Below, one piece after another: positions 5,231 to 56,323 of a DNA stretch of 64,000 nucleotides (the first letter of the stretch is position 1; each line of letters starts with the position of its first letter). The notes below the pieces were generated by a model. It was given only the letters and a program-made list of their open reading frames with translations. It was not told where the DNA came from and searched no databases. The translations under genes and the position numbers were made by a program. This DNA is from an uncultured Alphaproteobacteria bacterium (GTDB taxonomy: Bacteria; Pseudomonadota; Alphaproteobacteria; Methylaequorales; Methylaequoraceae): the NCBI GenBank assembly GCA_902563505.1, contig CACEXK010000002.1, positions 134,884-198,883 of the forward strand. Direction: 5' to 3'.

Positions 5231-6499
5231 ATGAGCGCAAAGTTTTTTTTATTTATAACATTTACAATAACTTTATTTTTCACTTTTTTTTCAGAAACAA
5301 GAGAATTATCAATAAAGCAACTTGAGGAAAGAAAAAAAGCTGATATTGAAAGAAAAAAAGAAAGAGAGAAAAGGGGAAAAAAGTCTTTTCAAAAAGAGAT
5401 TACAATTAAGAGTGAAATTGTTTTCATTTCAAAAGAAAGAGAATTACCCCCGGTACTATCTAATCTTGACCCGATTTTGGATGATGAGGGATTTTATGGT
5501 GTGAAGCTTGCCATTGAAGATAACCTGACAACTGGCAGATTTGTTGGTCATGATTACAAAGCCGAATTCCATAGAATTTTAATAGATGAGGATCTTGACA
5601 GTGAGTTTGAGAAATTAATGAAACAGGGAAAAAAATTCTTTGTTGTAGATTTTAATGAAGATGAATTGTTATCTCTAATGAAAATTCCGGGAATTGAGGA
5701 TGTTTTAATTTTTAATGTAAGAGCAAAGAATGACTCTTTGAGAAATGAAAATTGTAAGAAAAACTTTTTCCACATTCCACCTAGCTATTCTATTTTATCT
5801 GATGCCCTCACCCAGTATTTAGTAAAAAAAAAATGGAAAAAATGGTTTTTAGTAACAGGACCAGACAAAAATGATAAGCTATATTCTGATGCTCTAAAAA
5901 AATCAGCAAAAAAATTTAATGTCAAAATAAAAGAAGAAAAAATATGGGATTTCTCCTCAGATTTGCGAAGAACAGCTGGAAAAGAAGTACCAATTTTCAC
6001 AAAAGGTTCAAAGTATGATGTTCTTGTTGTTGCTGACGAAGAAGGTGAATTTGGAGAGTACCTTGCATATAGGACATGGGATCCTAGACCAATAGCAGGA
6101 ACACAGGGTTTGAAACCAAGTTCGTGGCATCGCACACATGAGCAGTGGGGGGCAACGCAGATGCAAAATAGGTTTAGAAGAGAAAGTGGAAGATGGATGA
6201 CTGAGGTTGACTATCATGCGTGGACTGCAGTAAGAGCTTTGGGAGAAACAATAACCAGAACTCAAAGTAATGATGTAAATGAAGTACAAAAGTATTTATT
6301 GGGTGAAAAATTTGGTTTGGGTGCTTACAAAGGTGTAAAGGTATCTTTTAGATCATGGAATGGTCAATTAAGACAACCAATTTTATTAGCTGCTCCGAGA
6401 TCAATGGTATCTGTTTCTCCCCAGGAGGGGTATATTCATCCAGTAAGTGAGCTTGATACTATGGGTGAAGATGAACCGGAATCTACTTGTAAATTTTAA
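5231..6499 (+). CDS. periplasmic substrate-binding protein of a PQQ-dehydrogenase-associated ABC system (PedA1-like)
   Basis: Has a signal peptide followed by a Lys/Glu-rich linker, then a type-I (Leu/Ile/Val-like) SBP body. It is the first gene of an SBP/beta-propeller/ATPase/ABC-2 permease quartet next to pqq and xoxF. Confidence 0.65.
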   Translation: MSAKFFLFITFTITLFFTFFSETRELSIKQLEERKKADIERKKEREKRGKKSFQKEITIKSEIVFISKERELPPVLSNLDPILDDEGFYGVKLAIEDNLTTGRFVGHDYKAEFHRILIDEDLDSEFEKLMKQGKKFFVVDFNEDELLSLMKIPGIEDVLIFNVRAKNDSLRNENCKKNFFHIPPSYSILSDALTQYLVKKKWKKWFLVTGPDKNDKLYSDALKKSAKKFNVKIKEEKIWDFSSDLRRTAGKEVPIFTKGSKYDVLVVADEEGEFGEYLAYRTWDPRPIAGTQGLKPSSWHRTHEQWGATQMQNRFRRESGRWMTEVDYHAWTAVRALGETITRTQSNDVNEVQKYLLGEKFGLGAYKGVKVSFRSWNGQLRQPILLAAPRSMVSVSPQEGYIHPVSELDTMGEDEPESTCKF

Positions 6500-6520
6500 A
6501 ATTTTTAATACATTAACATC

Positions 6521-7489
6521 ATGAAACTTCTTTTTTTAATAGTTGCTTTTTTTTCAATATTAAGCTTTTCAAATGTTAATGCAAATTTAGCCTACATAAC
6601 TAATGAGAAAGACAATACAGTAAGTGTAATTGATATAAAAAAGAAAAAAGTGATTAAAACCGTCAAGGTTGGTCAAAGACCTCGAGGAATCATCATGTCT
6701 AAGGATGGAAAGCTTGTTCTTATATGTGCATCAGATGATGACAGAGTAGAAGTTAGAGAAGCAGAAACTCTTAAGTTAAAATATCATTTGCCCTCGGGAC
6801 CTGATCCAGAACTGTTTATCCTATCGCCAGACGACAGTACTCTATATATAGCCAATGAGGATGATGCAATGGTAACTGTAGTTGATATGAATGATAAAAT
6901 GATAATTGATGACATACCAGTAGGAGTTGAGCCTGAAGGTATGGGACTAACAAATAATGGTAAGGTTTTAGTAAACACCTCTGAAACAACAAATATGGCT
7001 CATTTCATTGACACTAATACTCTCGAAATCATTGAAAATGTTCTAGTCGATGCGCGACCAAGAGTTGCAATGTTTACACCTGATGACAAAGAGGTATGGG
7101 TTTCTGCGGAAATAGGGGGTACTGTAAAAGTTATTAACCCAAGCTCCAAAGAAGTTACTCACACCATAGGATTTGAAATACCTGGAGTTAATGAGGAAAG
7201 CATCCAGCCAGTAGGCGTAAGACATTCAAAAGATGGTAAATACACATTTATAGCACTTGGTCCAGCTAACAGAATTGCCGTAGTCGATCAACAAACAAAA
7301 GAACTTGTTAAATATCTACTTGTTGGCCAGAGAGTTTGGCAACTAGCATTCACTCCTGATCAAAAAACTTTGTTAAGTACCAATGGAGTAAGTAATGATG
7401 TTTCTTTTATCAATGTAGACAAACTAAAAGTTGAAAAATCAGTTAAAGTTGGAAGATTTCCTTGGGGAGTTGTTATAAGCCCTAACTAG
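6521..7489 (+). CDS. YVTN-repeat beta-propeller protein, PQQ-dependent catabolism-associated (PedA2-like)
   Basis: Has a signal peptide and repeated units of the form 'Y(I/V)(T/A)NE.D..V.V(I/V)D' (LAYITNEKDNTVSVIDI, LYIANEDDAMVTVVDM, IAVVDQQT, SNDVSFINV). Confidence 0.8.
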   Translation: MKLLFLIVAFFSILSFSNVNANLAYITNEKDNTVSVIDIKKKKVIKTVKVGQRPRGIIMSKDGKLVLICASDDDRVEVREAETLKLKYHLPSGPDPELFILSPDDSTLYIANEDDAMVTVVDMNDKMIIDDIPVGVEPEGMGLTNNGKVLVNTSETTNMAHFIDTNTLEIIENVLVDARPRVAMFTPDDKEVWVSAEIGGTVKVINPSSKEVTHTIGFEIPGVNEESIQPVGVRHSKDGKYTFIALGPANRIAVVDQQTKELVKYLLVGQRVWQLAFTPDQKTLLSTNGVSNDVSFINVDKLKVEKSVKVGRFPWGVVISPN

Positions 7490-7517
7490 TTAACCTTTGG
7501 GAAATTAATTAAGCAAA

Positions 7518-8243
7518 ATGACTGTTGCCCTAGAAATAAAAAATGTTTCACATAAATTTGGAGAGTTTCTGGCCCTTAACGATGTCAGCTTGAATATATT
7601 ACCAGGTGATTTTACTGTACTACTTGGATTAAACGGTGCTGGTAAGACTACTCTTTATTCATTAATAACAAGGCTATATAACAACAATTCTGGATCAATA
7701 AAAATCTATGGATTTGATGTTCGTGAAAATTCAGTAAATGCTCTTAAAAATATTGGAGTTGTATTTCAACAACCAACATTAGACCTTGACTTAAGTGTTA
7801 AAGAGAATCTTAATTATCACTCATCTCTCCATGGTATAAGTTTTGCTGAGGCCAATAACAGAATTGACAGCGAAATTGGCAGAATAAAATTAGAGGATAA
7901 AATTAAAAGTAAAGTCAGAGCATTGTCAGGTGGACAAAGGCGAAGAGTAGAGATTGCAAGGTCACTTATCCATAGACCTAAACTATTACTTTTAGATGAA
8001 CCAACAGTTGGTTTAGATATAGGTTCTAGGCAAATGATTTTAAAACATGTTAAGTCTTTGTGTAAAAAAGATAATTTAGCAGTTCTTTGGGCCACTCATT
8101 TGATTGATGAGATTGATAAGGGAGAAAAAGTAATAATTATAGATAAAGGTAAAGTCCTTGAATCTGGTGATGTTTCAATGATTGTAAGAAAAACCAAAAC
8201 AAAAAATATTAGAGACGCATTTAACAAATTAGTAGGAATTTAA
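7518..8243 (+). CDS. ABC transporter ATP-binding protein
   Basis: Has Walker A (GLNGAGKTT), the ABC signature (LSGGQRRR) and Walker B (LLLLDEPT). Confidence 0.92.
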   Translation: MTVALEIKNVSHKFGEFLALNDVSLNILPGDFTVLLGLNGAGKTTLYSLITRLYNNNSGSIKIYGFDVRENSVNALKNIGVVFQQPTLDLDLSVKENLNYHSSLHGISFAEANNRIDSEIGRIKLEDKIKSKVRALSGGQRRRVEIARSLIHRPKLLLLDEPTVGLDIGSRQMILKHVKSLCKKDNLAVLWATHLIDEIDKGEKVIIIDKGKVLESGDVSMIVRKTKTKNIRDAFNKLVGI

Positions 8244-8249
8244 ATAATA

Positions 8250-9053
8250 ATGGAACTTGTAATTTACATACGGTGTTTTAAGGGGATTGTTTTGAGAGAG
8301 GCTTTGAGGTTCATTCATCAGAAAGAGAGGTTTTTCTCTGCATTAGTTAGACCATTGGTATGGCTTGGAATTTTTGCTGCAGGATTCAGATCAGTACTTG
8401 GGGTTGCAATTATTCCCCCTTACGAAACTTATATCCCCTATGAGGTATATATTGCACCAGGTTTGATAGCAATGATTCAATTATTTAACGGAATGCAAAG
8501 TTCTTTATCTATGGTTTATGACAGAGAAATGGGCAGTATGAAAACAATGCTAGTAAGTCCTATTCCTAGGTGGTTTTTGTTAATTTCAAAATTACTAGCT
8601 GGTGTTTTCGTTTCTATACTTCAGGTTTATGCTTTTTTGATAATAGCTTCCCTGTGGGATATAATTCCTCCAATTTCTGGATATTTTACGATTCTTCCTG
8701 CTTTAATAGTTTCAGGTCTGATGTTAGGTTCTTTGGGTATGTTTTTATCTTCAGCAATTAAACAACTGGAAAACTTTGCTGGTGTTATGAATTTTGTTAT
8801 ATTTCCTATGTTTTTTGCCTCATCCGCTCTTTATCCATTATGGAAAATTGAAGAAACGAGTGAATGGCTTTATTATTTTTGTTTTTATAATCCCTTTACT
8901 TATGCTGTTGAGTGCATCAGGTTTTCTCTTTATTCTCAGATAAATATAGAATACACAATTGGGATTCTTATATTTACATTAATATTTTTGTTTTTATCGA
9001 TTTTAGGATATGATCCCGCAAGAGGAAATTTACAAAAGAAAGCAGGAAAATAA
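8250..9053 (+). CDS. ABC-2 type transporter permease (PedC-like)
   Basis: 267-aa protein with about 6 TM segments and ABC-2 permease architecture. It lies directly after the ATPase gene. Confidence 0.8.
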   Translation: MELVIYIRCFKGIVLREALRFIHQKERFFSALVRPLVWLGIFAAGFRSVLGVAIIPPYETYIPYEVYIAPGLIAMIQLFNGMQSSLSMVYDREMGSMKTMLVSPIPRWFLLISKLLAGVFVSILQVYAFLIIASLWDIIPPISGYFTILPALIVSGLMLGSLGMFLSSAIKQLENFAGVMNFVIFPMFFASSALYPLWKIEETSEWLYYFCFYNPFTYAVECIRFSLYSQINIEYTIGILIFTLIFLFLSILGYDPARGNLQKKAGK

Positions 9054-9055
9054 AT

Positions 9056-9475
9056 ATGAAAAATTTTTTAAAATTTCTATGCATAATTGTTTTTATATCT
9101 TCAGCAACTCATGCTAAGGGAGATCTTGCAATTAGGGCAAAAAAATTAGAATTAAAACTTGGTTCAGAAAAAAGTGATTATGATATGTCACAAAAAGTTT
9201 TTGAGATGGAAACTGGTAAAGCATATAGACTTGAAATTTCTAGTATGGGTTTTAAAGAATACGAAATTGAAGCAGAAGATTTTTTTAGAAATATTTGGAT
9301 TAGAAATATTGAAGTTGCAGGAATAGAGATCGATACACCTGTCATTGAAGAAATTGAATTTGAAAGAGAAGGTGAAATAGAAATAAAGTTCGTTCCAATT
9401 CGTCCGGGTGAATATGACTTTGAGATCGAAGGGCTTCAAAGTAAAGGAATGGTTGGAAAGTTTATTGTGAAATAA
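9056..9475 (+). CDS. secreted, very acidic small protein with a degenerate cupredoxin-like C-terminus (function unknown)
   Basis: Has a signal peptide (…ISSATHA/KG). The start is 2 nt after the permease stop. It contains alternating E-x-E strands (EYEIEAED, EIEFEREGEIEIKF, DFEIEG). The C-terminus PGEYDFEIEG..KGMVGKFIVK resembles a cupredoxin tail but has no Cys or His at the usual copper-ligand positions. Confidence 0.6.
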   Translation: MKNFLKFLCIIVFISSATHAKGDLAIRAKKLELKLGSEKSDYDMSQKVFEMETGKAYRLEISSMGFKEYEIEAEDFFRNIWIRNIEVAGIEIDTPVIEEIEFEREGEIEIKFVPIRPGEYDFEIEGLQSKGMVGKFIVK

Positions 9476-9494
9476 TTTTATATGGAGTGTTATT

Positions 9495-10142
9495 ATGTAC
9501 CAAAAATTTATTATATTTTTTGTTTTTACTTTGATTTTCATTTTTTCTTTTAATGTATCTGCCAATCCACCTGAAGCCGCTCCCAAAAAATGGCCTTGTG
9601 ATCAAGTTTATAATCCAAAACTGAACTTAAGTGCTATATGGCAGGGCCCACCAATTGATAACGCTTTAAAAAATTGGTGGAAAGATGACGATATAATTGA
9701 TTATGTAAATACTCTTTCAAATCCTGTTCTCAAGGAAGATGATGGACTAAGAATAATTGAAGAGTTTGCAAAAAAATACACTTACCTTGGTTTAATAAAA
9801 AAACGAGAACAAAAAGAAAAATTAGTTTTTCTTTTTGCAGGACTATATCAAAAGGCAAAAGATCGAAGAAGTAGGCAATACAAAGGCATTATAAAGTTTG
9901 TTGAAAGGCAGGATTCATTCAGAAAAGCAATTGGCAAAGCTTCTAAATTAATAAGACAATATAGAAAAGATAAAATTGATATTAAAGATCAAAGATATGT
10001 AGATGCTTCTTCTCAGTTAGAATGGAATACAAGAGTATTTGATCAAAGAACTAGACTTACAGAATATATATGTGAGGAACCAGTTTTTAACACCCAAAGA
10101 TTGGGTTATCAATCCCGAAAGATATACTTATACCTACAATAA
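9495..10142 (+). CDS. secreted hypothetical protein (basic, two Cys)
   Basis: 215-aa ORF with an N-terminal signal-like segment (…FNVSANPPEA). I recognise no family. It is the last gene before pqqA. Confidence 0.55.
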   Translation: MYQKFIIFFVFTLIFIFSFNVSANPPEAAPKKWPCDQVYNPKLNLSAIWQGPPIDNALKNWWKDDDIIDYVNTLSNPVLKEDDGLRIIEEFAKKYTYLGLIKKREQKEKLVFLFAGLYQKAKDRRSRQYKGIIKFVERQDSFRKAIGKASKLIRQYRKDKIDIKDQRYVDASSQLEWNTRVFDQRTRLTEYICEEPVFNTQRLGYQSRKIYLYLQ

Positions 10143-10148
10143 ATTTAA

Positions 10149-10165
10149 ATGAATCTGATATGAAT
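10149..10165 (+). promoter_or_regulatory. direct repeat ATGAAT-N5-ATGAAT (11-bp phasing) upstream of pqqA
   Basis: The sequence taaATGAATctgatATGAATgtgta lies 92-108 nt upstream of the pqqA ATG. The same arrangement occurs twice in the xoxF upstream spacer. Confidence 0.55.
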
Positions 10166-10256: not shown

Positions 10257-10334
10257 ATGGCTTGGACAAAACCAATGATTTCTGAGATCTCTGTAGGTCT
10301 AGAAATCAATTCTTATGCTTGCGCTGAAAAGTAG
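10257..10334 (+). CDS. pqqA: PQQ precursor peptide PqqA
   Basis: A 25-codon ORF, MAWTKPMISEISVGLEINSYACAEK, not present in the ORF track. It has the conserved W-x-x-P motif and the E-x-x-x-Y crosslinking pair (EINSY). An AAGGAG SD lies 6 nt upstream, and pqqB is directly downstream. Confidence 0.93.
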   Translation: MAWTKPMISEISVGLEINSYACAEK

Positions 10335-12416: not shown

Positions 12417-13557
12417 TGTAAAGAAACAAACAAACCTTAAAAAAGCCTCTGAGCATGGTATTCAGGCTCCATTGGCCCTATTGGCAGAATTGTCACATAG
12501 ATGTCCCCTACAGTGCCCATATTGTTCAAATCCAGTTCAACTAGAAAAAAAAACTGGAGAGTTGACTACAGATGAGTGGAAATCAGTAATAGATCAAGCT
12601 GTTGAAATGGGAATGCATCAAATACATCTTTCAGGTGGGGAACCAACTGTTAGACACGATCTTGAGGATATTGTAGAGCATTGTACAAACAAAGGCCTTT
12701 ATACAAATCTTATCACATCTGGGGTTCTTCTTAATCCAGATCGATTAAAGAAACTTGAGAAATTAGGTTTAGAACATGTGCAGTTATCTTTTCAAGATAC
12801 AGATAATGACAATGCTGATAGAATTGGTGGATTCAAAGGTGGGCATGCAAAAAAACTGGAAGTTGCGAAGTGGGTTAGAGAAGTTGAATTACCTTTAACC
12901 TGTAATTGTGTGGTTCATAGACAAAACATAGATAATTTAGAAAATTTCATTCAGATGGCCCTTGATCTTGACGCTGAAAGAGTTGAGATTGCTCAGGTTC
13001 AATACTATGGGTGGGCACTTAAAAATAGAGCTGCATTCATTCCTACTCCTGAACAACTTGACCATGCAACAGAAATAGTTGAAAAAGCGAGAATAGATTT
13101 AAAAGGAAAGTTGGTTATTGATTATGTAATTCCTGATTATTACGCAAAACATCCAAAAAACTGCATGGGAGGATGGGGCAGAAGATTTCTGAATATGAAT
13201 CCAAAAGGTGATGTTTTGCCTTGTCATGCCGCTGAAACAATTCCTCATTTGAAATTTGATAATGTTAGAGAACATAGCCTCAAATGGATCTGGGAAAATT
13301 CAGAAGCATTTAATATATATAGAGGTACTGATTGGATGCCAGAGCCATGTAAATCCTGTGATAGAAAAGAAATCGATTGGGGTGGTTGTAGATGCCAGGC
13401 TATGGCACTAACTGGTGATGCAAAAAACACCGACCCAGCTTGTTCTATTTCTCCACTTCACAGTGAAATTTTCTCAATGGCAGCTGAGGAAGCGAGAAGA
13501 GCTCCTCCAGAATTTATATACAGAAGGTATGGTGTGAGATTTAATTCACCTATCTAA
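12409..13557 (+). CDS. pqqE: radical SAM enzyme PqqE
   Basis: Has the CPLQCPYC radical-SAM cluster motif and a C-terminal SPASM-like Cys cluster (CKSCDRKEIDWGGCRCQA). Confidence 0.93.
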   Translation: MDDVKKQTNLKKASEHGIQAPLALLAELSHRCPLQCPYCSNPVQLEKKTGELTTDEWKSVIDQAVEMGMHQIHLSGGEPTVRHDLEDIVEHCTNKGLYTNLITSGVLLNPDRLKKLEKLGLEHVQLSFQDTDNDNADRIGGFKGGHAKKLEVAKWVREVELPLTCNCVVHRQNIDNLENFIQMALDLDAERVEIAQVQYYGWALKNRAAFIPTPEQLDHATEIVEKARIDLKGKLVIDYVIPDYYAKHPKNCMGGWGRRFLNMNPKGDVLPCHAAETIPHLKFDNVREHSLKWIWENSEAFNIYRGTDWMPEPCKSCDRKEIDWGGCRCQAMALTGDAKNTDPACSISPLHSEIFSMAAEEARRAPPEFIYRRYGVRFNSPI

Positions 13558-14425
13558 CAGGTGGTCTTCCCTTTATTAGAGCATCGGTAGTTGTTTCATC
13601 CGCTTTTTTTCTTTTTCCTGGTCTTAGGCTCAGCACAGGAATGTTATGCTTAGCCAATATTTTGTCTATATCTTTTTGATTCTCTTTAATAAATTTATTT
13701 AATTTCTTCTTCCAATCTGTTTCACCATCTCTAACACCCATTGTGGTATAGTAATCCATTCTTCCCCAACCTTGATCTGTTGTTTCTAAAGGGATAAAAA
13801 CATATTTTTCTTTAGTATAGCCTTTTTTATTTAAGTAATGAGTTGCAATTGGACCTGACATAAATGCTATATCAACAAGGCCGTCAATCATATCTTCGAT
13901 CATTGTTTCTCCAATTATTGCTCTTCTTGGGTCAAATGTTAGGTTGTATGGCCTTACTCTTCCCATTAGGTTAAATCTTTGTAATACAAAGGTTGGAGGA
14001 GTTCCAGCTTGAACACCAATGCTCAGTTCTGCAAGTTGAGGATGATTGGGCCTATCAACTTCAATACCGCTATCTTTAAGGTATACCATTCCGTAGGCCC
14101 ACCTCATGTATGGAACTGTATTTAAAACTAAGTCATTATTTGCTGTTATTCCAATAATTATATCACATTTTTTCTTGTTCAAAGTGTTACGAACATACCC
14201 AATAACTTGAGGAAAGAATTCGTAAACAACGGGTATACCTAGTTTTTCTCCTAATAGCTTAGCAATATCATTTTCATAACCTTCCTCTTTTTCATTTGAG
14301 AAAGGGAGGTTGGATGGGTCTGCACAAACTCTCAAATTTTCGGTATCAACAGCCTCTATTGCGGTCTCTCTAGCTTTGGGGTTAGACACTACAATAAGCA
14401 TAAAAAGAACAACAAAAAGTTTCAT
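13550..14425 (-). CDS. xoxJ: MoxJ/XoxJ-type periplasmic binding protein associated with methanol dehydrogenase
   Basis: Has a signal peptide and an SBP fold with MxaJ-like segments (LRVCADPSNLPFSNEKEEGYENDIAKLL). It is the last gene of xoxF-G-J. Its stop overlaps the pqqE stop by 8 nt, with the two genes convergent. Confidence 0.8.
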   Translation of the reverse strand: MKLFVVLFMLIVVSNPKARETAIEAVDTENLRVCADPSNLPFSNEKEEGYENDIAKLLGEKLGIPVVYEFFPQVIGYVRNTLNKKKCDIIIGITANNDLVLNTVPYMRWAYGMVYLKDSGIEVDRPNHPQLAELSIGVQAGTPPTFVLQRFNLMGRVRPYNLTFDPRRAIIGETMIEDMIDGLVDIAFMSGPIATHYLNKKGYTKEKYVFIPLETTDQGWGRMDYYTTMGVRDGETDWKKKLNKFIKENQKDIDKILAKHNIPVLSLRPGKRKKADETTTDALIKGRPPVR

Positions 14426-14467: not shown

Positions 14468-15079
14468 TTATTCTTTAAACTTTGGAAGTTTTGGAAGTCT
14501 AACACCTCTTCTAATCTTACCATCAGCTCTTGCTTTTACATATCTATAGATATCATTGATATGTGGTTCAACATTGGTATTTTCTCCAAAAGCGGGCATC
14601 ACATTTCCTTCTTGTGCACCTTCGGCAACACCTTTACCATTTGCTATAATAGTGTAGAAATCCATATAGTCTAAACCATTCTTAACAGACATCATTAATG
14701 ATGGTGCGTAGGTACTCCCCATAGCATCAGGTCCATGACAAACATGACATTCTGCATGATAAGCTCTCCAACCTTTGTAAGTCGAGAAGTCCATCCATCC
14801 ATATTTCATCTCTACAAGGTCATCATTTGCTCTGCATTCATCCATATCTTCATCTGAGGCAAAGTCAACAGCTTGTTCCTTACAATAAATTTGAATAAGG
14901 TTTAATGGTTTTTCGGTAGAGGGATCGAGTCTGTCTCCTTCGCCGTATGTTACATAGTATGTAGGATCGTCATTTTCGTCAAACTGAGGTTCAACTGCAT
15001 CTGGTGTAGGCATTGCAATTGATTTGCCTGCAACAAACACTGAAGCGATTAAACTAGTTAAAATTGTTTTTTTTGTCAT
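14468..15079 (-). CDS. xoxG: c-type cytochrome (cytochrome cL-like, XoxG)
   Basis: Has a signal peptide and a single heme motif, CHVCHG. It lies downstream of xoxF. ATG 15079 is preceded by a GGTGGA SD, whereas the ORF track starts at TTG 15094. Confidence 0.85.
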   Translation of the reverse strand: MTKKTILTSLIASVFVAGKSIAMPTPDAVEPQFDENDDPTYYVTYGEGDRLDPSTEKPLNLIQIYCKEQAVDFASDEDMDECRANDDLVEMKYGWMDFSTYKGWRAYHAECHVCHGPDAMGSTYAPSLMMSVKNGLDYMDFYTIIANGKGVAEGAQEGNVMPAFGENTNVEPHINDIYRYVKARADGKIRRGVRLPKLPKFKE

Positions 15080-15173
15080 ATTTATTCCACCCAATAAATG
15101 TTCTTATTTATTAATATATATATTAGTATTTATTATTCTAAATTCCAGAAAAAACTAAATAATTTTCTTTTAC

Positions 15174-15230: not shown

Positions 15231-17063
15231 CTACGGTAGAGAGAAGACAGTCAATACGCCACCAAGAGCAGTGTGGTTATGTAGTGCAGAGTATGCACCC
15301 ACAGCACCAAGACCTGCAGTTGGGTCAGTAAGACCAGCAGCTAGACCAATTCCAGCCCAACCACCAACGCCTGATAGGATACCAACATATTGCTTACCTT
15401 TATGTTTGTAAGACATGAAGTTACCGATAATACCAGATGGTGTTTTGAACTTGAATAGTTCTTTACCAGTTTTACTTTCAACAGCTTTAGCATAACCTTC
15501 TAATGTTCCATAGAATGTAATACCACCAGCTGTTGCCATAGCACCAGACCATACAGAGAATGGCTCAGGGTTAGACCATACGATCTTACCTTTATCAGCA
15601 TCCCATGCGATCATGTTACCAAGATGAGTTCCGCCTGGAGCTGGGTACATAGATAATGTAGCACCAACATAAGCGTTACCAGCTACGTAATCAACTTTGA
15701 ATGGTTCGTAGTCCATACAAACATGGTTTGTTGGAACCATAAATAAACCAGAAAGTCTATCGTAAGCAGCAGGCTGTTGGTCTTTAGAACCTAGAGCCGC
15801 TGGGCAGATGTTAGTAGTGTTAACATCTTCACCTTGGTGTGCAGTTGAATATCTGTCTTGTACTTGCGGACGACCAGTTTTCATATCAACATGAGTTGCC
15901 CAGTTCACTGCTGGATCATATTTTTCAGCAACAAGTAGTTCACCTGAAGCTCTATCCATAGTGTAAGCAAATCCGTTTCTGTCGAAGTGCACAAGTGCTT
16001 GACGGTTTTTACCTTTAACTTTCATGTCAACAAGAATCATCTCGTTAACACCGTCGTAATCCCACTCATCATATGGAGTCATTTGATATAACCATTTAGC
16101 CATACCATTGTCTGGGTTACGAGCGTTAATCGTCATAGACCATTTGTTGTCACCAGGACGAACAACTGGGTTCCATGTTGATGGGTTACCTGTACCGTAG
16201 TACAAAGTATTTAATTTAGAGTCATAACCGTAGAAACCCCAAATTGAACCACCACCGATTTTCCATGCATCACCAGGCCAAGTTTTCAAAGATGAATCTT
16301 TACCAATTGGTTTTAACATAGAAGTAGTTTTGTTTGGATCAACAAGCATATCCTTATCTGGACCCATGCTGTATGCTCTCCAAAGTCTCTTACCACTGTT
16401 GATGTCATAACTTGTCCAGTTACATCTAACACCAAATTCAGCACCAGAACAACCAACACCTACAGTATCTTTGATAATGAAAGGTTGACCTGAACCAGTT
16501 GATGCAGAAACACCATATTTACCAGTACCAGCGTGTAGATTTGTAGTAATCCACTTTTCTTTACCAGTTTTAGCGTCTAATGCAATTACTGAAGTATCAG
16601 CAGCGTGAAGAACGATTGTACCATTTGGATGATAGTTAACACCACGGTTAACGTTATCACAACACATAACTGAGATAACTCTATCCATAGTTTCACCACC
16701 TGGGTACTTACCACCTTTTACAGGGTTGTACTTCCAAATGATTCTTTGGTCATCATTAAGATCTAAAGCGTACACGATATTTGGGATAGCAGTATGTACA
16801 TACATTGTATCACCAATAACAAGTGGACCACCTTCGTGACCTCTTAAAACACCAGTAGAAAAAGTCCATGCGACTTTTAAGCTACCAACATTACTTTTGT
16901 TGATTTGATCCAAAGTTGTGTAACGATGTCCAGCGTAATCACCAGACTGTTGTACCCATTGACTAGGATCTTTCATCATTTTTTCTAGCTTAGAATTAGC
17001 ACTTACTGCAAGAGGAAGAGCTAAAGCAGCAGAAGCGATGATGCTTTTTTTCAAAATACTCAT
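15231..17063 (-). CDS. xoxF: PQQ-dependent methanol dehydrogenase, XoxF type (lanthanide-dependent signature)
   Basis: 610 aa with a signal peptide. Has the vicinal Cys pair ([10 protein letters not shown]) and tryptophan-docking propeller repeats. The segment [10 protein letters not shown] carries D-Y-D, where MxaF-type enzymes have D-x-A. An AAGGAG SD is present. Confidence 0.95.
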
Positions 17064-17191
17064 AAAGTATTTCTCCTTTATTAAGTTAATATAAAGAGTA
17101 GAAACTACTCGGTTATTAAAATGTCGGAATCAAACTAGATAACAAAAGAAAGATGTCACTTTTTTGATTTCCTCCCATTGTCATATTATTT

Positions 17192-17197
17192 ATGAAT
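17192..17197 (+). promoter_or_regulatory. solo ATGAAT half-site in the xoxF upstream spacer
   Basis: A single tATGAATagc copy lies 26 nt from the first paired site. Confidence 0.3.
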
Positions 17198-17217
17198 AGC
17201 CCAAATTCAAGGAAAAA

Positions 17218-17234
17218 ATGAATGCAAGATGAAT
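17218..17234 (+). promoter_or_regulatory. direct repeat ATGAAT-N5-ATGAAT (site 1, xoxF / soxYZ-like divergent spacer)
   Basis: The sequence is aaaATGAATgcaagATGAATgctgtgta. It is followed by a TGTGTAG-tt-TGTGTAG tandem at 17238-17253. Confidence 0.55.
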
Positions 17235-17344
17235 GCTGTGTAGTTTGTGTAGCGGCAAACAATCTTTTTCCAACAAGATCAATTACTTATAAGCACAAAT
17301 CAATAAAAAAAAAGCTGTGGATAATTTTTATTTTTTTTTATTAA

Positions 17345-17361
17345 ATGAATAGAAGATGAAT
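17345..17361 (+). promoter_or_regulatory. direct repeat ATGAAT-N5-ATGAAT (site 2)
   Basis: The sequence taaATGAATagaagATGAATacaaa lies 157-173 nt upstream of the soxYZ-like ATG, in the same orientation as the pqqA site. Confidence 0.55.
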
Positions 17362-17440
17362 ACAAATTTTAAAAATTGTTCAGAATTGAAAAAAATGCAA
17401 TAAAATCAATGCTTTAATTGATTGATTTTAATAGGTAGCT

Positions 17441-17517: not shown

Positions 17518-18345
17518 ATGAAATTAAACAATATTTTTTTCAAATTTTTTATATTATTTTCGCTAGTTAATTTTAGTTCAAATACATATTCTAAGGATAA
17601 ACTTCCTGAGCCAGTAGTATGGGATACAGATCTCAAAGAATTTTTCTTTGATAATGATGAAATACAAGACGGCTCAAAAATCTTTTCTTTAGAAACTCCA
17701 TACAGAGCTCTTGATGCAGCTATAGTTCCAATAACAGTAAAATTTAAACAAAAACAATCAGAAAACAATTATGTCAAATCATTATCATTAATTATTGATG
17801 AAAATCCATCTCCTCTGGTAGGGAAGTTCGAATTTACACCAAAAATGGGAGACCCTTCATTCACAACAAGAATCAGAGTTGATAAATATACCTATGTAAG
17901 GGCAGTTATTGAAATGAATGATAGTAAGAAATTTATGGTTGCTAATTATGTAAAAGCTGCAGGTGGTTGCTCTGCCCCAGCTCTTGCTGACATGGATTCA
18001 ATAATGGCAAGATTAGGTAAAATGAAAATGAAATTTATAAAAACAGGGAAAAAAGGCGAGATAAATAAAGCGCAATTTTTAATCAGTCACCCGAACTATT
18101 CAGGACTTCAGTTTAACCAGCTAACCAGGTCGGAAATACCCGCCCATTTTGTAAACTATATAAGTATAGAACAGGATGGTAACTTGATATTTCAGGCTAA
18201 TCCAGATATCTCTTTATCTGAAGACCCATCATTCACCTTCAATTATATTGACTCTGGTGGACCACTTAAGGTAACAGTAAAAGATAGTGATGGTTTGGAT
18301 TTTGCGGGTGAATTTCCAACATCCAATATTGTATCAGCAAAATAG
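17518..18345 (+). CDS. SoxY-SoxZ fusion, quinoprotein-dehydrogenase-associated SoxYZ-like carrier protein
   Basis: Has a signal peptide. The N-terminal half is SoxY-like (ALDAAIVPITVKF, IIDENPSPLVGKFEF, and it ends in VKAAGGCSAP, which contains the carrier-Cys GGC motif). The C-terminal half is SoxZ-like (FLISHPNYSG, IPAHFVNYISIEQDG, ISLSEDPSFTF, VTVKDSDG). Confidence 0.8.
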   Translation: MKLNNIFFKFFILFSLVNFSSNTYSKDKLPEPVVWDTDLKEFFFDNDEIQDGSKIFSLETPYRALDAAIVPITVKFKQKQSENNYVKSLSLIIDENPSPLVGKFEFTPKMGDPSFTTRIRVDKYTYVRAVIEMNDSKKFMVANYVKAAGGCSAPALADMDSIMARLGKMKMKFIKTGKKGEINKAQFLISHPNYSGLQFNQLTRSEIPAHFVNYISIEQDGNLIFQANPDISLSEDPSFTFNYIDSGGPLKVTVKDSDGLDFAGEFPTSNIVSAK

Positions 18346-18354
18346 AAATTTAAA

Positions 18355-18690
18355 TTAAAAACATTCAAGTTCAGATGCCGCTTGAGCTCTTAATAGTTTA
18401 TCCATCCTCTCTTTGGATAGACCAACGCTTTTAAAGGCTTCTTCTCGTGGACTTGCTCCCAGTTGAAGTCTAGCTATTGCTTCAGCCTGAGCATACTCTT
18501 CGTAATTAATTCTTTTTGCAATTTCATCAATAGCACATGAACATTTTGCCATAAAATCCCTATTTGATTCATTGGAACTCATGCAGGCAAAAACGAATTC
18601 TGATCTTGCAACTGTCGGGAAATCATTGGATTCTGCAGAATCTATAGATATCATGTAACTAATGAAAATAAAAATTAATCTTTTAAACAT
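18355..18690 (-). CDS. secreted hypothetical protein, 4 Cys
   Basis: 111 aa with a signal-like N-terminus. Cysteines occur at FACM, KCSC and the C-terminal ELECF. It lies 2 nt downstream of the 276-aa ORF. Confidence 0.5.
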   Translation of the reverse strand: MFKRLIFIFISYMISIDSAESNDFPTVARSEFVFACMSSNESNRDFMAKCSCAIDEIAKRINYEEYAQAEAIARLQLGASPREEAFKSVGLSKERMDKLLRAQAASELECF

Positions 18691-50823: not shown

Positions 50824-51534
50824 ATGATAGATTCAGAAAAAATATATAGCTTAAATTTGAAGGTTGAAAAATATCTACCTGAGCGGATAATTACTTTATC
50901 AATGGATGAATTCGATGGGAAAATTGCTTATGTTTCTTCTTTTGGTACAGAATCAGCTATAATTCTCCATATGATATCGAGAATAAACAAAAAATTCCCG
51001 ATTATCTTGATAAATACATATTTCTTATTTAATAAAACACTTGAATATAAGCATATGCTCTTAGAAAAAATGAATTTAGAAAATTTTAAAGAGATTTACC
51101 CTGACAATGAAACACTTCAAAATAATGATAAGCAAAATGATTTATGGAAAACCAATACAGACAAGTGTTGTGATATAAGAAAAGTTCAACCATTGAATAA
51201 AGAATTAAAAAACTATAATGCATGGATATCAGGTAGAAAGTCTTACCAGGGGTCAGAGAGAAAAACTTTAAAAGCATTCGAATATATTAATAATAAAGTA
51301 GTGGTAAATCCTCTAGTGAATTTTTCTCAAGAAAATGTCGACCAATATTTTAAAAAGAACAACTTACCTAGACACCCGATGTATGACGAAGGTTTTTTAT
51401 CTATTGGCTGCACTCATTGTACAGCAAAGCCAACTGATGTTAAAGATGTAAGGTCGGGAAGGTGGATAAATCAAACTAAAACCGAATGCGGAATCCACAA
51501 AAGATTTAAAGATTGGGAGAATAATAATGGATGA
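50824..51534 (+). CDS. cysH: adenylylsulfate (APS)/PAPS reductase, Fe-S type
   Basis: Has a PP-loop-like SFGTES motif, a Cys pair DKCCDIRK plus SIGCTHCT (the CC...CxxC cluster signature of APS reductases) and the C-terminal catalytic ECGIH. Confidence 0.88.
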   Translation: MIDSEKIYSLNLKVEKYLPERIITLSMDEFDGKIAYVSSFGTESAIILHMISRINKKFPIILINTYFLFNKTLEYKHMLLEKMNLENFKEIYPDNETLQNNDKQNDLWKTNTDKCCDIRKVQPLNKELKNYNAWISGRKSYQGSERKTLKAFEYINNKVVVNPLVNFSQENVDQYFKKNNLPRHPMYDEGFLSIGCTHCTAKPTDVKDVRSGRWINQTKTECGIHKRFKDWENNNG

Positions 51535-52324
51535 TCATTTAAAAAAACTAGAAAATGACAGCATTTATATTTTTAGACAAGCTTTTAGGTCTATTAAAAA
51601 TGTAGCAATGCTCTGGTCATTAGGAAAGGATTCGAATGTTATGGTTTGGATTGCTTTAAAGGCTTTTCTTGGGAAAATTCCATTTCCACTAGTGCATGTA
51701 GATACAGGAAAAAAATTTAAAGAAATGTATGAATTTAGAGAAAAATATGAAAAAAAATGGAATATAAATCTTATAAAAAGAAAATGCCCCCCAATAAGTT
51801 CGATTGATCCCTCTCTCCCACCTGCGGCTAGATCTGCTGCTAGAAAAACAGAAGGGTTAAAAGCAGTAATAAGAGAAAATAATTTCAAAGGTGTCATAGC
51901 AGGGATAAGGAGAGATGAGCAAGGGACGAGAGCCAAAGAAAGAATTTTTAGTCCGAGAGATGAGTTTGGAAAATGGGAGCCAAAAAATCAACCTCCAGAA
52001 TTTTGGGATCAATCAAATTTTAACTACCCCGATTCTGTTCATTTGAGAATACATCCTTTGTTAAGTTGGACAGAAATAGATATTTGGAAGTATATAAAAG
52101 AACAAAAAATACCAATTGTTGATCTTTATTTTTCAAAAAATGGAAAAAGGTACCGATCACTTGGAGATAAAGATATTACTTTCCCAGTGGTAAGTAGTGC
52201 TAAAAATCATGATCAAATAATTAGAGAACTTCAGAATACTAAAGTCTCTGAAAGATCGGGACGAGCGATGGATCATGAGCAGGAAGATGTATTTGAAAAA
52301 CTCAGAACTAGTGGATACATGTAA
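51527..52324 (+). CDS. cysD: sulfate adenylyltransferase subunit 2
   Basis: Matches the CysD family (MLWSLGKDSNVM, HVDTGKKFKEMYEFR, GIRRDEQGTRAKERIFS, and a C-terminal SERSGRAMDHE motif). Confidence 0.9.
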   Translation: MDDHLKKLENDSIYIFRQAFRSIKNVAMLWSLGKDSNVMVWIALKAFLGKIPFPLVHVDTGKKFKEMYEFREKYEKKWNINLIKRKCPPISSIDPSLPPAARSAARKTEGLKAVIRENNFKGVIAGIRRDEQGTRAKERIFSPRDEFGKWEPKNQPPEFWDQSNFNYPDSVHLRIHPLLSWTEIDIWKYIKEQKIPIVDLYFSKNGKRYRSLGDKDITFPVVSSAKNHDQIIRELQNTKVSERSGRAMDHEQEDVFEKLRTSGYM

Positions 52325-52326
52325 CT

Positions 52327-54195
52327 GTGACTCTGGAAGATGTAGAACATATCCCTAAAGTTGTCGTTGTCGGTCACATCGATCATGGTAAGTCATCTTT
52401 TATTGGTCGTTTAATGTATGATCTTGATCAGATCCCTGATGGTAAATTTGAAGAGTTAAAAGAGGTAAGTAAAAAAAGAGGAATGGATTTTGAATTTGCA
52501 TTCTTGATGGATGCACTTCAGTCTGAGAGAGATCAGGGAATAACTATTGATACGACGCAAATTTTTTTTAGAACTAAAAAAAGGAAATATGTATTTATTG
52601 ACGCCCCTGGACACAAGGAGTTTGTGAGAAATATGATAACAGGAGCATCTTCCGCTGATATTGCAATGCTAATTGTAGATGTTTGTGAAGGGGTCAAAGA
52701 ACAAACAAAAAAACATTCTTACCTCCTAAAACTTTTGGGAATAGATAATGTAATAATTCTTTACAACAAGATGGACAAAATCAAAAATGATGAAAAAAGA
52801 TACTTGTCAGTAAAAAATGAAATGGAAGAATATTTGAGAAATATAGGTATTAAAATATCAAACCAGATTCCAATTTCAGCAAAATGTGGTGACAATATTG
52901 TGAAAAAAAGTTCCAATATAAAATGGTATGAAGAAAAGGTTGTGAGTGAGGTTCTTGATGAATTTGATGTTGATTCAAAAAATGTTTTAGGTCCTTTGAG
53001 ATTACCAGTTCAAGACATCTATAAGATAAAAGATAAAAGGATCATAGTAGGTAGGATTGAGTCAGGAAAAGTTTCAATTGATGATGAGCTTCTTTTTTTA
53101 CCATCAAACGAAACTGTAAGAATCGATAGTTTTGAAGAATGGCCTGAGCCAAAAAACGATTATTTTGCTGGTGAAAGTATAGCATTTACAATGAAAGAGC
53201 AAATTTTTGTTGATAGAGGAAATTTAGTTTCTCATTCTGAAACTCCGCCAAAATTAATGCAGACTTTTGAAGCAAATATTTTTTGGCTGACACACAAAAA
53301 GTTAAATTTAAAAGGTAAGTATTTACTAAAAATTAATACAGGTGAGTATTCAGTGAGTATAAAAAATATTAAAAAAATAATAAATACAGATAATCTAGAA
53401 TCAAAATCATCATCTGGAATAATAAGAAAAAATGATGTTGCCGAGATTGTTCTTCATTCATCTCAACTCATACCAATGGATGATTTTCGAGATAACAAAA
53501 AGACTGGAAGGTTTTGTTTGTTAGATGAAGAAGAAATTATTGCAGGAGGGATAGTCGATTTATCTAATTATCCTGATCAAAGAGAGTCAAGTGTTCAACC
53601 TAATATAAAGCCTGTCGAACTTGCAGTTAAAGAAATTGATAGGTCAAATAAATTTAATCACAGATCTGCAATAATCTGGTTGACAGGTCTTTCAGGATCA
53701 GGAAAAAGTACAATAGCAAAAGAAGTGGAAAGAAAGTTATTTCTCAGAGATTTCAATGTTTTTGTTTTAGATGGTGATAATTTGAGAATGGGATTAAATA
53801 AAGGTTTGAAATTTTCAACAGATGACCGCACTGAGAATATAAGGAGAACGGCAGAAGTAGCGAAATTATTTAGTCAAGCAGGTTTTATTGTTATTGTTTC
53901 ATTAATATCACCTTATAAAAGTGAAAGGAAAAAAGCTAGAGATATAAGACCTGAAATTTTTAAAGAAATATATGTTTCTGCATCTTTAGAAGAATGCTCA
54001 AAAAGAGATGTAAAAGGTTTATATGCTAAAGCTAACAAAGGAGAGATAAAAAACTTTACAGGTATATCTTCCCCATATGAGGAGCCAGATAATCCTGATC
54101 TTATTCTAAATACAGAAGATGAATCTGTGGAGAAGAGCGTTAAAAAATTAGAAAATTTCATCGTGGAAAATTTTAGTAATTTAAAAAAAAGTTGA
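52327..54195 (+). CDS. cysNC: bifunctional sulfate adenylyltransferase subunit 1 / adenylylsulfate kinase
   Basis: Has a GTG start. The N-terminal GTPase has GHIDHGKSS, DAPGH and NKMD motifs. The C-terminal APS kinase has a P-loop (LTGLSGSGKST) and LDGDNLR. Confidence 0.9.
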   Translation: MTLEDVEHIPKVVVVGHIDHGKSSFIGRLMYDLDQIPDGKFEELKEVSKKRGMDFEFAFLMDALQSERDQGITIDTTQIFFRTKKRKYVFIDAPGHKEFVRNMITGASSADIAMLIVDVCEGVKEQTKKHSYLLKLLGIDNVIILYNKMDKIKNDEKRYLSVKNEMEEYLRNIGIKISNQIPISAKCGDNIVKKSSNIKWYEEKVVSEVLDEFDVDSKNVLGPLRLPVQDIYKIKDKRIIVGRIESGKVSIDDELLFLPSNETVRIDSFEEWPEPKNDYFAGESIAFTMKEQIFVDRGNLVSHSETPPKLMQTFEANIFWLTHKKLNLKGKYLLKINTGEYSVSIKNIKKIINTDNLESKSSSGIIRKNDVAEIVLHSSQLIPMDDFRDNKKTGRFCLLDEEEIIAGGIVDLSNYPDQRESSVQPNIKPVELAVKEIDRSNKFNHRSAIIWLTGLSGSGKSTIAKEVERKLFLRDFNVFVLDGDNLRMGLNKGLKFSTDDRTENIRRTAEVAKLFSQAGFIVIVSLISPYKSERKKARDIRPEIFKEIYVSASLEECSKRDVKGLYAKANKGEIKNFTGISSPYEEPDNPDLILNTEDESVEKSVKKLENFIVENFSNLKKS

Positions 54196-54217
54196 CAAAT
54201 TCAAATATTTTATTAAT

Positions 54218-54244
54218 TTAGCACTCGTTAGTGTAGAGTGCTAA
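54218..54244 (+). promoter_or_regulatory. CIRCE operator (HrcA binding site) upstream of groES
   Basis: The sequence TTAGCACTC-gttagtgta-GAGTGCTAA is a perfect match to the TTAGCACTC-N9-GAGTGCTAA consensus. A TTGACA -35-like hexamer lies at 54192-54197. Confidence 0.93.
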
Positions 54245-54296
54245 TAAGAGGCTCTGCAGATTGTAAGTTTGAATTGTCTAACAAAGGAGATTCTAT

Positions 54297-56262
<1,966 letters not shown>

Positions 56263-56290
56263 ATTACCCATTTGTGTAATACTTGTTTAT

Positions 56291-56323
56291 AAAAAACCCA
56301 GTATGAACTGCTGGGTTTTTTTT
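56291..56323 (+). terminator. rho-independent terminator after groEL (A-tract/T-tract flanked, potentially bidirectional)
   Basis: The sequence is AAAAAACCCAG-tatgaactg-CTGGGTTTTTTTT. Confidence 0.88.

Follow-up and report, generated by a model that had tools for sequence, protein, structure and literature searches.

What does a homolog of the sulfur-oxidation carrier SoxYZ do beside xoxF, the gene of a lanthanide-type methanol dehydrogenase? The question is raised by a 64,000-nucleotide stretch of DNA from an uncultured alphaproteobacterium (assembly GCA_902563505.1, contig CACEXK010000002.1, positions 134,884 to 198,883; hereafter the window), which has a guanine–cytosine content of ~30% and is the region known in the marine order TMED127/Methylaequorales as the "methylotrophy island". 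Here, we show that the gene encodes an exported periplasmic fusion of a SoxY-like and a SoxZ-like domain (hereafter the carrier), which is a member of the curated family TIGR04557 and part of a lanthanide-dependent methanol-oxidation module (xoxFGJ, pqq, lut; Table 1). This identity, proposed in a preliminary description made from the sequence alone, is correct but already known, because a 2025 paper annotates an ortholog from TMED127 and the curated family exists; the carrier is an ordinary member of that family. As to its function, we favor, with a probability of roughly 40%, a factor that is conditionally needed to maintain or protect XoxF and that would hold a sulfur-type adduct on its cysteine, Cys151.

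Among the methanol oxidizers of oligotrophic surface oceans, TMED127/Methylaequorales seem to have the highest transcriptional activity, with XoxF5 as the dominant transcript (PMC12542740), and a protein that modulates XoxF in these bacteria matters for how methanol and lanthanides cycle in the sea. The family itself is widespread: its members number in the thousands and come from Pseudomonas ped clusters, methylotrophs, symbionts, and phages.

Architecture and conservation of the carrier

Family membership follows from a nearly full-length match to the TIGR04557 profile (245.9 bits, E = 3e-73, curated cutoff 140 bits; profile positions 1–225 of 226). This is the family of "quinoprotein dehydrogenase-associated SoxYZ-like carriers" named in the preliminary description, and it is also the label that NCBI gives to homologs of the carrier, which number more than 5000. 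Profiles of the true sulfur-oxidation proteins scored under their cutoffs, with 65.1 bits for SoxY (TIGR04488, cutoff 125) and 54.0 bits for SoxZ (TIGR04490, cutoff 76). The two halves had been aligned by eye to SoxY, including the string VKAAGGCSAP, and to SoxZ, through FLISHPNYSG, IPAHFVNY, and SEDPSFTF. All four strings are present in the translation, the Pfam families PF13501 and PF08770 cover the respective halves, and the homology is strong both by sequence and by fold. In a sequence comparison with the Protein Data Bank (PDB), SoxY 4uwq_B and SoxZ 1v8h_A were the best matches; the SoxZ half also aligns to 4uwq_C, and the GGC of the carrier falls on the C-terminal GGC of 4uwq_B. An AlphaFold2 model built from a 105-sequence alignment (predicted local distance difference test (pLDDT) 88, predicted template modeling score (pTM) 0.82) gave Foldseek matches of the two halves to SoxY 2ox5_Y (template modeling (TM) score 0.82) and SoxZ 1v8h_A (TM score 0.80).

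The N-terminus reads as a signal for Sec-type export. A twin-arginine motif occurs in none of 119 close homologs and is rare in the wider family, and the alignment of carrier relatives begins at KDK(S/L)PEP.

Cys151 is the sole cysteine of the carrier and ends the GGC at residues 149–151. Its conservation among orthologs had been singled out beforehand, together with the SoxY/SoxZ homology, as a point on which the assignment could fail; neither point refutes the assignment. The cysteine is retained in 121 of 122 near-full-length representatives (50% identity clusters), down to ~30% identity to the query. The consensus around it among these representatives is [FY]VKA[AS]GGCSAP, and G149, G150, C151, S152, A153, and P154 are invariant in the 105-sequence alignment. 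Conservation extends to the SoxY motifs TRxR and D.NP.P and the SoxZ motif HPN..G, which are invariant or nearly so in two alignments, and to G167 and (K/Q)M(K/R), where the linker enters the SoxZ domain. The preliminary description had held that fusion buries the cysteine. It is indeed internal in the chain, which runs 124 residues further after GGCSAP, but burial is not borne out by the model: pLDDT drops to ~65 at residues 151–160, just past the last SoxY strand, before helix 155–165 leads into the SoxZ domain. This dip and this position fit an exposed flexible loop, and Cys151 probably lies on such a loop at the domain junction.

The methylotrophy island and the absence of a Sox pathway

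The carrier gene is divergent from xoxF across a 454-bp spacer and lies, as expected of TIGR04557, near a PQQ (pyrroloquinoline quinone)-dependent dehydrogenase of the methanol/ethanol family. Further genes of the window encode a lut-type lanthanide-uptake ATP-binding cassette (ABC) system with lutC and lutG, pqqA-E, xoxJ and xoxG, and two small exported proteins, and these are accompanied by genes for tetrahydromethanopterin (H4MPT)/methanofuran synthesis, one-carbon (C1) transfer, and hopanoid synthesis, and then sulfate assimilation. Eight loci of uncultured marine Alphaproteobacteria (L001–L008) are fully syntenic with the window and share the divergent arrangement of xoxF and the carrier gene. 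L005 is CM1_5m.P40, the genome behind the ~45-kb "methylotrophy island" drawn for TMED127/"Methylaequorales" (Glass et al. 2025, PMC12542740). The host genome is streamlined (~1.5 Mb), and the organism is an obligate methylotroph in which XoxF5 accounts for 16–57% of transcripts (PMC12542740). In the excerpt of Table S5 of that paper used here (hereafter the Table S5 excerpt), the ortholog AG-892-F10.CDS.52 is listed as "SoxYZ-like protein" in the module "Methanol oxidation" and as a homolog of META1p1704.

Most open reading frames (ORFs) of at least 100 amino acids in the window were scanned against profile families. As stated in the preliminary description, no soxAX, soxB, or soxCD lies nearby: none was found among the scanned ORFs, and the only real CxxCH heme motif of the window is that of xoxG. 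This bears on the idea that the carrier is a true sulfur-oxidation carrier, which would present inorganic or organic sulfur (thiosulfate, tetrathionate, or methanethiol-derived sulfur) for energy-yielding oxidation, with a XoxF-type enzyme acting on sulfur, as is reported for a XoxF homolog in tetrathionate oxidation. Its SoxYZ ancestry and the SoxH-like and rhodanese-like neighbors at other loci would fit such a role, and Sox and Xox homologs reportedly collaborate in tetrathionate oxidation, as the title of a 2018 study by Pyne et al. has it (cited in PMC12542740). We nevertheless consider it very unlikely: the Sox enzymes are missing among the scanned ORFs, the scores lie under the true SoxY and SoxZ cutoffs, the neighboring xoxF encodes a canonical XoxF5 methanol dehydrogenase in an obligate methylotroph, and family members occur in bacteria unable to oxidize thiosulfate (PMC11237559).

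Control region, expression, and selection

The xoxF–carrier spacer shows clear phylogenetic footprints. It contains ATGAAT five times on the plus strand, against 0.73 copies expected on both strands together, and four of the five copies form two tandem ATGAAT-N5-ATGAAT pairs. With three copies in the window, the tandem form ATGAAY-N5-ATGAAY is well above the 0.12 expected. Each syntenic locus has its tandem boxes at exactly these positions, one ahead of each of pqqA, xoxF, and the carrier gene, with conserved hexamers and variable spacers. At the promoter-like site of the carrier gene, the loci share an unchanged TTTGTTCAGA and a conserved -10 region; at that of xoxF, both hexamer regions are conserved in the nine-locus alignment. 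Judged by sequence, the boxes look like a candidate site of one regulator of a PQQ/XoxF regulon, and the 11-bp spacing of the direct repeats would suit a winged-helix response regulator. No regulator for the boxes was found among the scanned ORFs, a few ORFs of the window lying outside the scan. The same spacer holds, at 17316–17324, the sequence TGTGGATAA, the reverse complement of the DnaA-box consensus TTATCCACA. It is kept in nine of nine loci while its flanks diverge; as a single copy in 64 kb against 0.8 expected, it stands out by conservation and not by occurrence.

The shared control region and ATGAAT motif of xoxF and the carrier gene, as given in the preliminary description, are thus real and conserved, but in published in situ data the transcript of the carrier ortholog does not follow that of xoxF. 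According to the Table S5 excerpt, the carrier ortholog averages 392 transcripts per million (TPM) in situ in the Sargasso Sea and xoxF5 351,021 TPM (PMC12542740). The carrier transcript therefore stands at ~1/1000 of xoxF, similar to xoxJ and the pqq genes and average for the genome. Across 35 Sargasso Sea samples, Spearman correlation of the published TPM values with xoxF was 0.10 for the carrier ortholog, 0.67 for xoxG, and 0.72 for xoxJ, and the pqq genes do not follow xoxF either; these data are noisy, have low counts, and come from another genus of the order. The sequence evidence hence supports a common site of xoxF and the carrier gene, but tight co-expression is not supported.

The carrier gene is under purifying selection, as indicated by ratios of nonsynonymous to synonymous substitution rates (dN/dS) of 0.03–0.15 among relatives. 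It evolves faster than xoxF, with protein identities across the order of 62–68% for the carrier and 96–97% for XoxF among the TMED127 relatives. Together with the more than 5000 homologs and the in situ transcription of the ortholog, the selection values show the carrier gene to be real.

Partners of the carrier family

The neighborhood survey of the family comprised seven loci of distant homologs and 80 metagenome loci. Counts refer to the 42 loci whose flanks reach at least 8 kb, genes within 10 kb of the carrier gene were taken as neighbors, and ORFs were scored by phmmer with seeds from the window and two distant clusters. The most frequent neighbor was a SoxH-like metallohydrolase (TIGR04559; 36 of 42 loci, mostly 0–60 bp from the carrier gene), followed by homologs of the 111-amino-acid protein encoded next to the carrier gene in the window (28 of 42). 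PQQ dehydrogenases were found at 23 loci, xoxJ at 18, xoxG at 16, homologs of the 276-amino-acid protein encoded next in the window at 11, and a rhodanese-like CXXCW protein (TIGR03865) at 10. All 22 neighboring XoxF-like dehydrogenases have the lanthanide Asp motif WD[YF]DG and a vicinal cysteine pair, and none of the 22 is an MxaF-type enzyme. In some genomes, exemplified by L035 (3473–10795), the SoxH-like/SoxYZ-like pair adjoins a LysR regulator and a NAD-formate dehydrogenase, and the 10 kb around it contain no PQQ dehydrogenase; loci of this type imply that the carrier family tracks C1 oxidation more broadly than xoxF alone.

The window departs from this pattern in its partners. The preliminary description had noted that partner hydrolases and rhodanese are absent, and this holds: no HxHxDH or CxxCW motif points to a SoxH-like metallohydrolase or a CXXCW rhodanese-like protein in the window, and phmmer searches with partner proteins from other loci among ORFs of at least 70 amino acids were negative. 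The absence extends to the relatives, in that homologs of the hydrolase, the CXXCW protein, and DUF3280 are missing both from the window and from the 10 kb on either side in L001–L008. The typical context of the family, a TIGR04558/9 hydrolase with a TIGR03865 CXXCW protein, is accordingly not encountered over this range. In the Table S5 excerpt, which covers an estimated share of well under half of the genes, "lactamase," "rhodanese," and META1p1703/1705 have 0 matches. Since the hydrolase is absent from the window and L001–L008 but present at 36 of 42 loci elsewhere, the island arrangement of this lineage is unusual and hydrolase-free.

Loss of the hydrolase and rhodanese partners could mean that the carrier is an evolutionary leftover without a present function in this lineage, and the missing neighbor is what such a leftover would predict. 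This explanation is disfavored to the point of being hardly credible, given the low dN/dS values, the retention of all family-invariant residues, the synteny in eight genomes of a streamlined order, and in situ transcription at the genome-average level in the Table S5 excerpt.

The 111- and 276-amino-acid genes belong to the carrier neighborhood. The former is a homolog of M. extorquens orf6 (META1p1746) according to the Table S5 excerpt (PMC12542740), and such orf6-like homologs adjoin SoxYZ-like genes also in distant xox clusters. In this family, C50-x-C52 and C110 are invariant in 49 of 49 sequences, and C36 and the C-terminal F111 are nearly so. The protein has no Pfam or NCBIfam model; its AlphaFold2 model is a helical bundle of moderate confidence (pLDDT 75, pTM 0.54), without a meaningful fold match in the PDB (best E = 0.4). 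Homologs of the 276-amino-acid protein (E = 1e-25 to 1e-28) occur at L013 (5254–5961) and L015 (3687–4394), where the operon order is xoxF-xoxG-xoxJ-[276-like]-[orf6-like]-SoxH-SoxYZ. The protein has no obvious catalytic residues. A relationship to DUF3280, which likely takes the orf7 position in other clusters, was considered and rejected (hhalign probability 0.3, unrelated).

These four-cysteine proteins are central to the main rival of a protection role, namely that the carrier is a maturation factor. Thiol-disulfide exchange between Cys151 and the orf6-like protein would then form or proof-read the Cys134-Cys135 disulfide of XoxF in the periplasm or aid PQQ/lanthanide loading. Such a function would account for the frequency of orf6-like neighbors with their invariant or near-invariant cysteines, for the vicinal cysteine pair in all neighboring XoxF proteins, and for the persistence of the carrier in a ~1.5-Mb streamlined genome (PMC12542740). 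In M. extorquens, orf6 is repeatedly hit in a transposon selection for XoxF1 function and is needed specifically for lanthanum-dependent methanol growth, its deletion lowering growth on methanol with La from 0.16 to 0.03 per h (PMC7391723). A review of the P. putida ped cluster likewise proposes disulfide formation or cofactor stabilization for PP_2677, besides protection of PQQ from sulfur nucleophiles (PMC12997753). The same genetics speak against the carrier itself in this role, however: META1p1703-1705, the carrier and its two neighbors, are missing from the list of genes with four or more hits in the M. extorquens selection, which recovered orf6, orf7, xoxG, and xoxJ (PMC7391723), and the P. 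putida homologs have minimal phenotypes in randomly barcoded transposon sequencing (PMC12997753). Moreover, Ca-dependent enzymes have the same disulfide without a carrier system (PMC12997753), a single-cysteine protein alone cannot resolve a disulfide, phages that encode only the carrier fit a dedicated assembly factor poorly, and the carrier transcript does not follow xoxF in the Table S5 excerpt. We therefore regard a maturation role as possible but doubtful.

Candidate functions of the carrier cysteine

In the reading that we favor, the Cys151 thiolate would form a transient covalent adduct, by analogy with SoxYZ, and this adduct would most likely be of a sulfur type (persulfide, S-sulfonate, or mixed disulfide). 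Rather than carrying substrate in bulk, the protein would be called on under certain conditions to maintain or protect XoxF, taking up or removing reactive sulfur nucleophiles that would otherwise attack the electrophilic PQQ–lanthanide center or the vicinal disulfide Cys134-Cys135, which is strained. Clearance of the adduct would fall to the adjacent SoxH-like metallohydrolase in most bacteria; here, where the island contains no hydrolase, the co-conserved four-cysteine orf6-like protein would be the likeliest partner.

The link to lanthanide-type XoxF is supported by the divergent arrangement in the window and the eight syntenic loci, by the PQQ dehydrogenases near 23 of 42 carriers, by the lanthanide motif and cysteine pair of all 22 XoxF-like neighbors, and by the tandem box common to pqqA, xoxF, and the carrier gene. 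Sulfur-type protection is ranked first because no ancestral arm or groove residue has been lost and because the recurrent partners are SoxH-like, rhodanese-like, and cysteine-rich. A conditional role is preferred since the screens that recovered true XoxF accessory genes missed the carrier, and the low transcript level, ~1/1000 of xoxF, agrees with it. Protection is further favored because thiosulfate is reported to inhibit the growth of H. denitrificans when the substrate is methanol, whereas growth on formate is unaffected (cited in PMC12997753, PMC11237559), and because phages encode the carrier alone, which suits a capacity-limited or consumable component.

The marine phage copies were found on 37 contigs of the IMG/VR database (L096–L132, mostly ~30% guanine–cytosine), each with a family member that has the exact GGCSAP motif and a signal peptide. 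The hydrolase, the PQQ dehydrogenase, and the orf6-like protein were found on none of these contigs. The viral carriers score 140–264 bits against TIGR04557, with that of L114 marginally under the 140-bit cutoff, and share 29–40% identity with the window protein. L111 is clearly of phage origin, with genes for ribonucleotide reductase, exonucleases, an endolysin, PhoH, a single-stranded DNA-binding protein, and a tape-measure protein. No carrier homolog was found in 50,697 records of cultured phages, and viral SoxYZ-like copies have been noted before (PMC11237559, PMC13500833).

Several points weigh against the protection reading. Oxic surface seawater, the habitat of the organism, is poor in sulfite, sulfide, and thiosulfate. 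No adduct has been published on any TIGR04557 member, the chemistry being read from ancestry and neighbors only, and a persulfide or sulfonate would have no evident release, because the island has neither the hydrolase nor the rhodanese-like protein. Of the surveyed loci, 19 of 42 have no PQQ dehydrogenase within 10 kb, some of them adjoining formate dehydrogenase instead, and the carriers without a nearby dehydrogenase are still TIGR04557 members. The missing correlation with xoxF transcripts adds to this, as does the finding that pmpAB, neighbors in the H. denitrificans cluster, are unresponsive to thiosulfate (PMC11582611). Finally, the negative genetic screens amount to absence of evidence, and the P. 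putida screen was run without lanthanides (PMC12997753).

Alternatively, the adduct could be a C1 unit. The thiol would then trap formaldehyde from XoxF as a thiohemiacetal and serve as a periplasmic buffer, or hold it as a tethered substrate for oxidation to a thioester that the SoxH-like, glyoxalase-II-fold enzyme hydrolyzes to formate. The family is consistently associated with C1 modules (XoxF, formate dehydrogenase, H4MPT genes), its partner hydrolase weakly matches hydroxyacylglutathione hydrolase (E = 4e-6), and the enzyme-free formation and dissociation of thiohemiacetals, a matter of general chemistry, would suit a hydrolase-free arrangement. In contrast, the internal-loop cysteine of a 27-kDa protein would hardly get through the narrow methanol funnel to PQQ, and a transcript ~1000-fold below xoxF in the Table S5 excerpt implies negligible capacity for formaldehyde buffering. 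All arm and groove residues of SoxYZ are kept, with no sign of re-tooling, and the rhodanese-like and four-cysteine partners would be left unexplained. A C1 carrier is thus an unlikely solution, and the thioester relay in particular was ranked low on steric and stoichiometric grounds.

A more speculative and rather improbable reading would be that the TMED127 carrier, without a SoxH-like hydrolase, forms with the orf6-like and 276-amino-acid proteins a minimal periplasmic protein-thiol relay that keeps XoxF5 (up to 57% of transcripts) active, and that marine phages carry the carrier without its partners to sustain methanol oxidation during infection. Such a thiol relay, if real, would mean that lanthanide quinoproteins have an enzyme-maintenance system of their own, of a new kind. 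The locus is useful as a natural "minimal" case, with a carrier, a four-cysteine protein, and a 276-amino-acid protein on an island without hydrolase and rhodanese, and this arrangement, together with the apparent shared regulatory box, could guide experiments in tractable relatives, such as M. extorquens (META1p1704 and orf6) or P. putida (PP_2677).

Further features of the window

Table 1. Carrier gene, module genes, and candidate regulatory sites in the window
Feature	Position	Strand	Evidence and remarks
lut/pedA1A2BC-type "PQQ-dependent alcohol dehydrogenase system" ABC transporter region	5231-10142	+	TIGR03863, 03866, 03864, 03861
Tandem box ATGAATCTGATATGAAT	10149..10165	+	92 nt upstream of pqqA; equivalent place in 7/7 loci reaching that far
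pqqA, 25 codons, MAWTKPMISEISVGLEINSYACAEK	10257-10334	+	Precursor motif E-x-x-x-Y; between lutG and pqqB
xoxJ-like periplasmic binding protein	13550..14425	-	TIGR03871, 240 bits, cutoff 212
xoxG, c-type cytochrome, XoxF electron acceptor	14468..15094	-	Best match TIGR03874, E 7.7e-37; CxxCH
xoxF, lanthanide-type PQQ methanol dehydrogenase	15231..17063	-	TIGR03075, 666 bits; WDYDG 334-338; vicinal Cys134-Cys135
Promoter-like site of xoxF, TTGAAT-N16-TAATAT	17183..17210	-	Read from the sequence; absent from consensus-scan output
Tandem box ATGAATGCAAGATGAAT	17218..17234	+	7 nt upstream of xoxF -35-like hexamer, read on minus strand
Tandem box ATGAATAGAAGATGAAT	17345..17361	+	17 nt upstream of carrier -35-like hexamer; conserved in 8/8 syntenic loci
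Promoter-like site of carrier gene, TTCAGA-N16-TAAAAT	17379..17406	+	Predicted by consensus scan
SoxYZ-like carrier gene, TIGR04557 family	17518..18345	+	ATG start; 275-aa (amino-acid) precursor; TIGR04557, Pfam, AlphaFold2, Foldseek
Putative Sec-type signal peptide, ~residues 1-25	17518..17592	+	Hydrophobic N-terminus, modeled helix 4-21; presumed cleavage after NTYS
SoxY-like domain, residues 43-151	17644..17970	+	PF13501, E 3.7e-31
Carrier motif GGCSAP, residues 149-154	17962..17979	+	Cys151 codon TGC at 17968-17970
Inter-domain linker, residues 152-174, helix 155-165 included	17971..18039	+	AlphaFold2 secondary structure
SoxZ-like domain, residues 175-264	18040..18309	+	PF08770, E 1.6e-22; invariant H191-P192-N193..G196
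Small exported four-cysteine protein, 111 aa, orf6/META1p1746 homolog	18355..18690	-	Convergent with carrier gene, 9 nt between stops
Exported protein, 276 aa	18693..19523	-	Upstream of orf6-like gene; no Pfam/NCBIfam match

The xoxG product scores 126 bits against TIGR03874, the methanol-metabolism-related cytochrome family, which is under the 162-bit cutoff. The xoxF gene shows a synonymous divergence (dS) of only 0.30 between the window and L001, compared with values above 2 for xoxG, xoxJ, soxYZ, and pqqE. This suggests either that very high expression constrains its codons to an extreme degree or that recombination spreads xoxF among TMED127 genera. The 5' leader of xoxF contains a short stem-loop, GAGTAGTTTCTACTC, at 17096–17110 on the minus strand, directly upstream of the ribosome-binding site. 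It is kept in eight loci, with compensatory changes at two of its four stem pairs, and might stabilize the very abundant xoxF mRNA. A scan of the window with Rfam gave nothing at gathering thresholds.

In the long-read metagenome-assembled contig of L007, the carrier gene, pqqB, the gene of the 276-amino-acid protein, and several others appear frameshifted, most likely by assembly errors rather than as pseudogenes. Downstream of the ABC transporter genes, the window encodes exported proteins of 139 and 215 amino acids, for which no family match was obtained here; the TMED127 paper names them lutC (annotated with a cupredoxin domain) and lutG (PMC12542740). At 50824–58399, an assimilatory sulfate-reduction set (3'-phosphoadenosine-5'-phosphosulfate reductase, a CysN/C fusion, and a NirA-type sulfite reductase) adjoins groEL in this streamlined marine genome.

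Comparison with known systems

With canonical SoxYZ (Paracoccus pantotrophus 2OX5; Thermus thermophilus 4UWQ), the carrier shares both folds (TM scores 0.80–0.84 on the target), the homologous GGC cysteine, the TRxR and D.NP.P motifs of SoxY, and the HPN..G motif of SoxZ. The canonical proteins are two chains, with the cysteine on a free C-terminal GGCGG arm, whereas the carrier is one chain with an internal GGCSAP motif followed by a linker. Canonical SoxY is exported by the twin-arginine translocation (Tat) pathway, in contrast to the apparently Sec-type signal of the carrier, and canonical Sox systems have SoxAX, SoxB, and SoxCD alongside, which have no counterpart among the scanned ORFs of the window.

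Closer counterparts are P. putida PP_2677, M. extorquens META1p1704, and TMED127 AG-892-F10.CDS.52, all of which show the same fusion, GGCSAP motif, signal peptide, and location in a PQQ-dehydrogenase cluster. The P. putida and M. extorquens loci differ from the window in that they have a flanking SoxH-like hydrolase (TIGR04558/9) and a CXXCW protein. The preliminary description had called the function of the family uncharacterized, which is in line with the current literature: PMC12997753 and PMC11237559 both state its role as unknown and give TIGR04557 no tested function. By description, the carrier can also be likened to "SoxYZ-S4" of lucinid and bathymodiolin symbionts and H. denitrificans, a fused SoxYZ that occurs with xoxF and formate dehydrogenase (PMC11237559). 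The SoxYZ-S4 loci are close to soxH, unlike the window locus, and their link to formate dehydrogenase recurs in our survey at L035.

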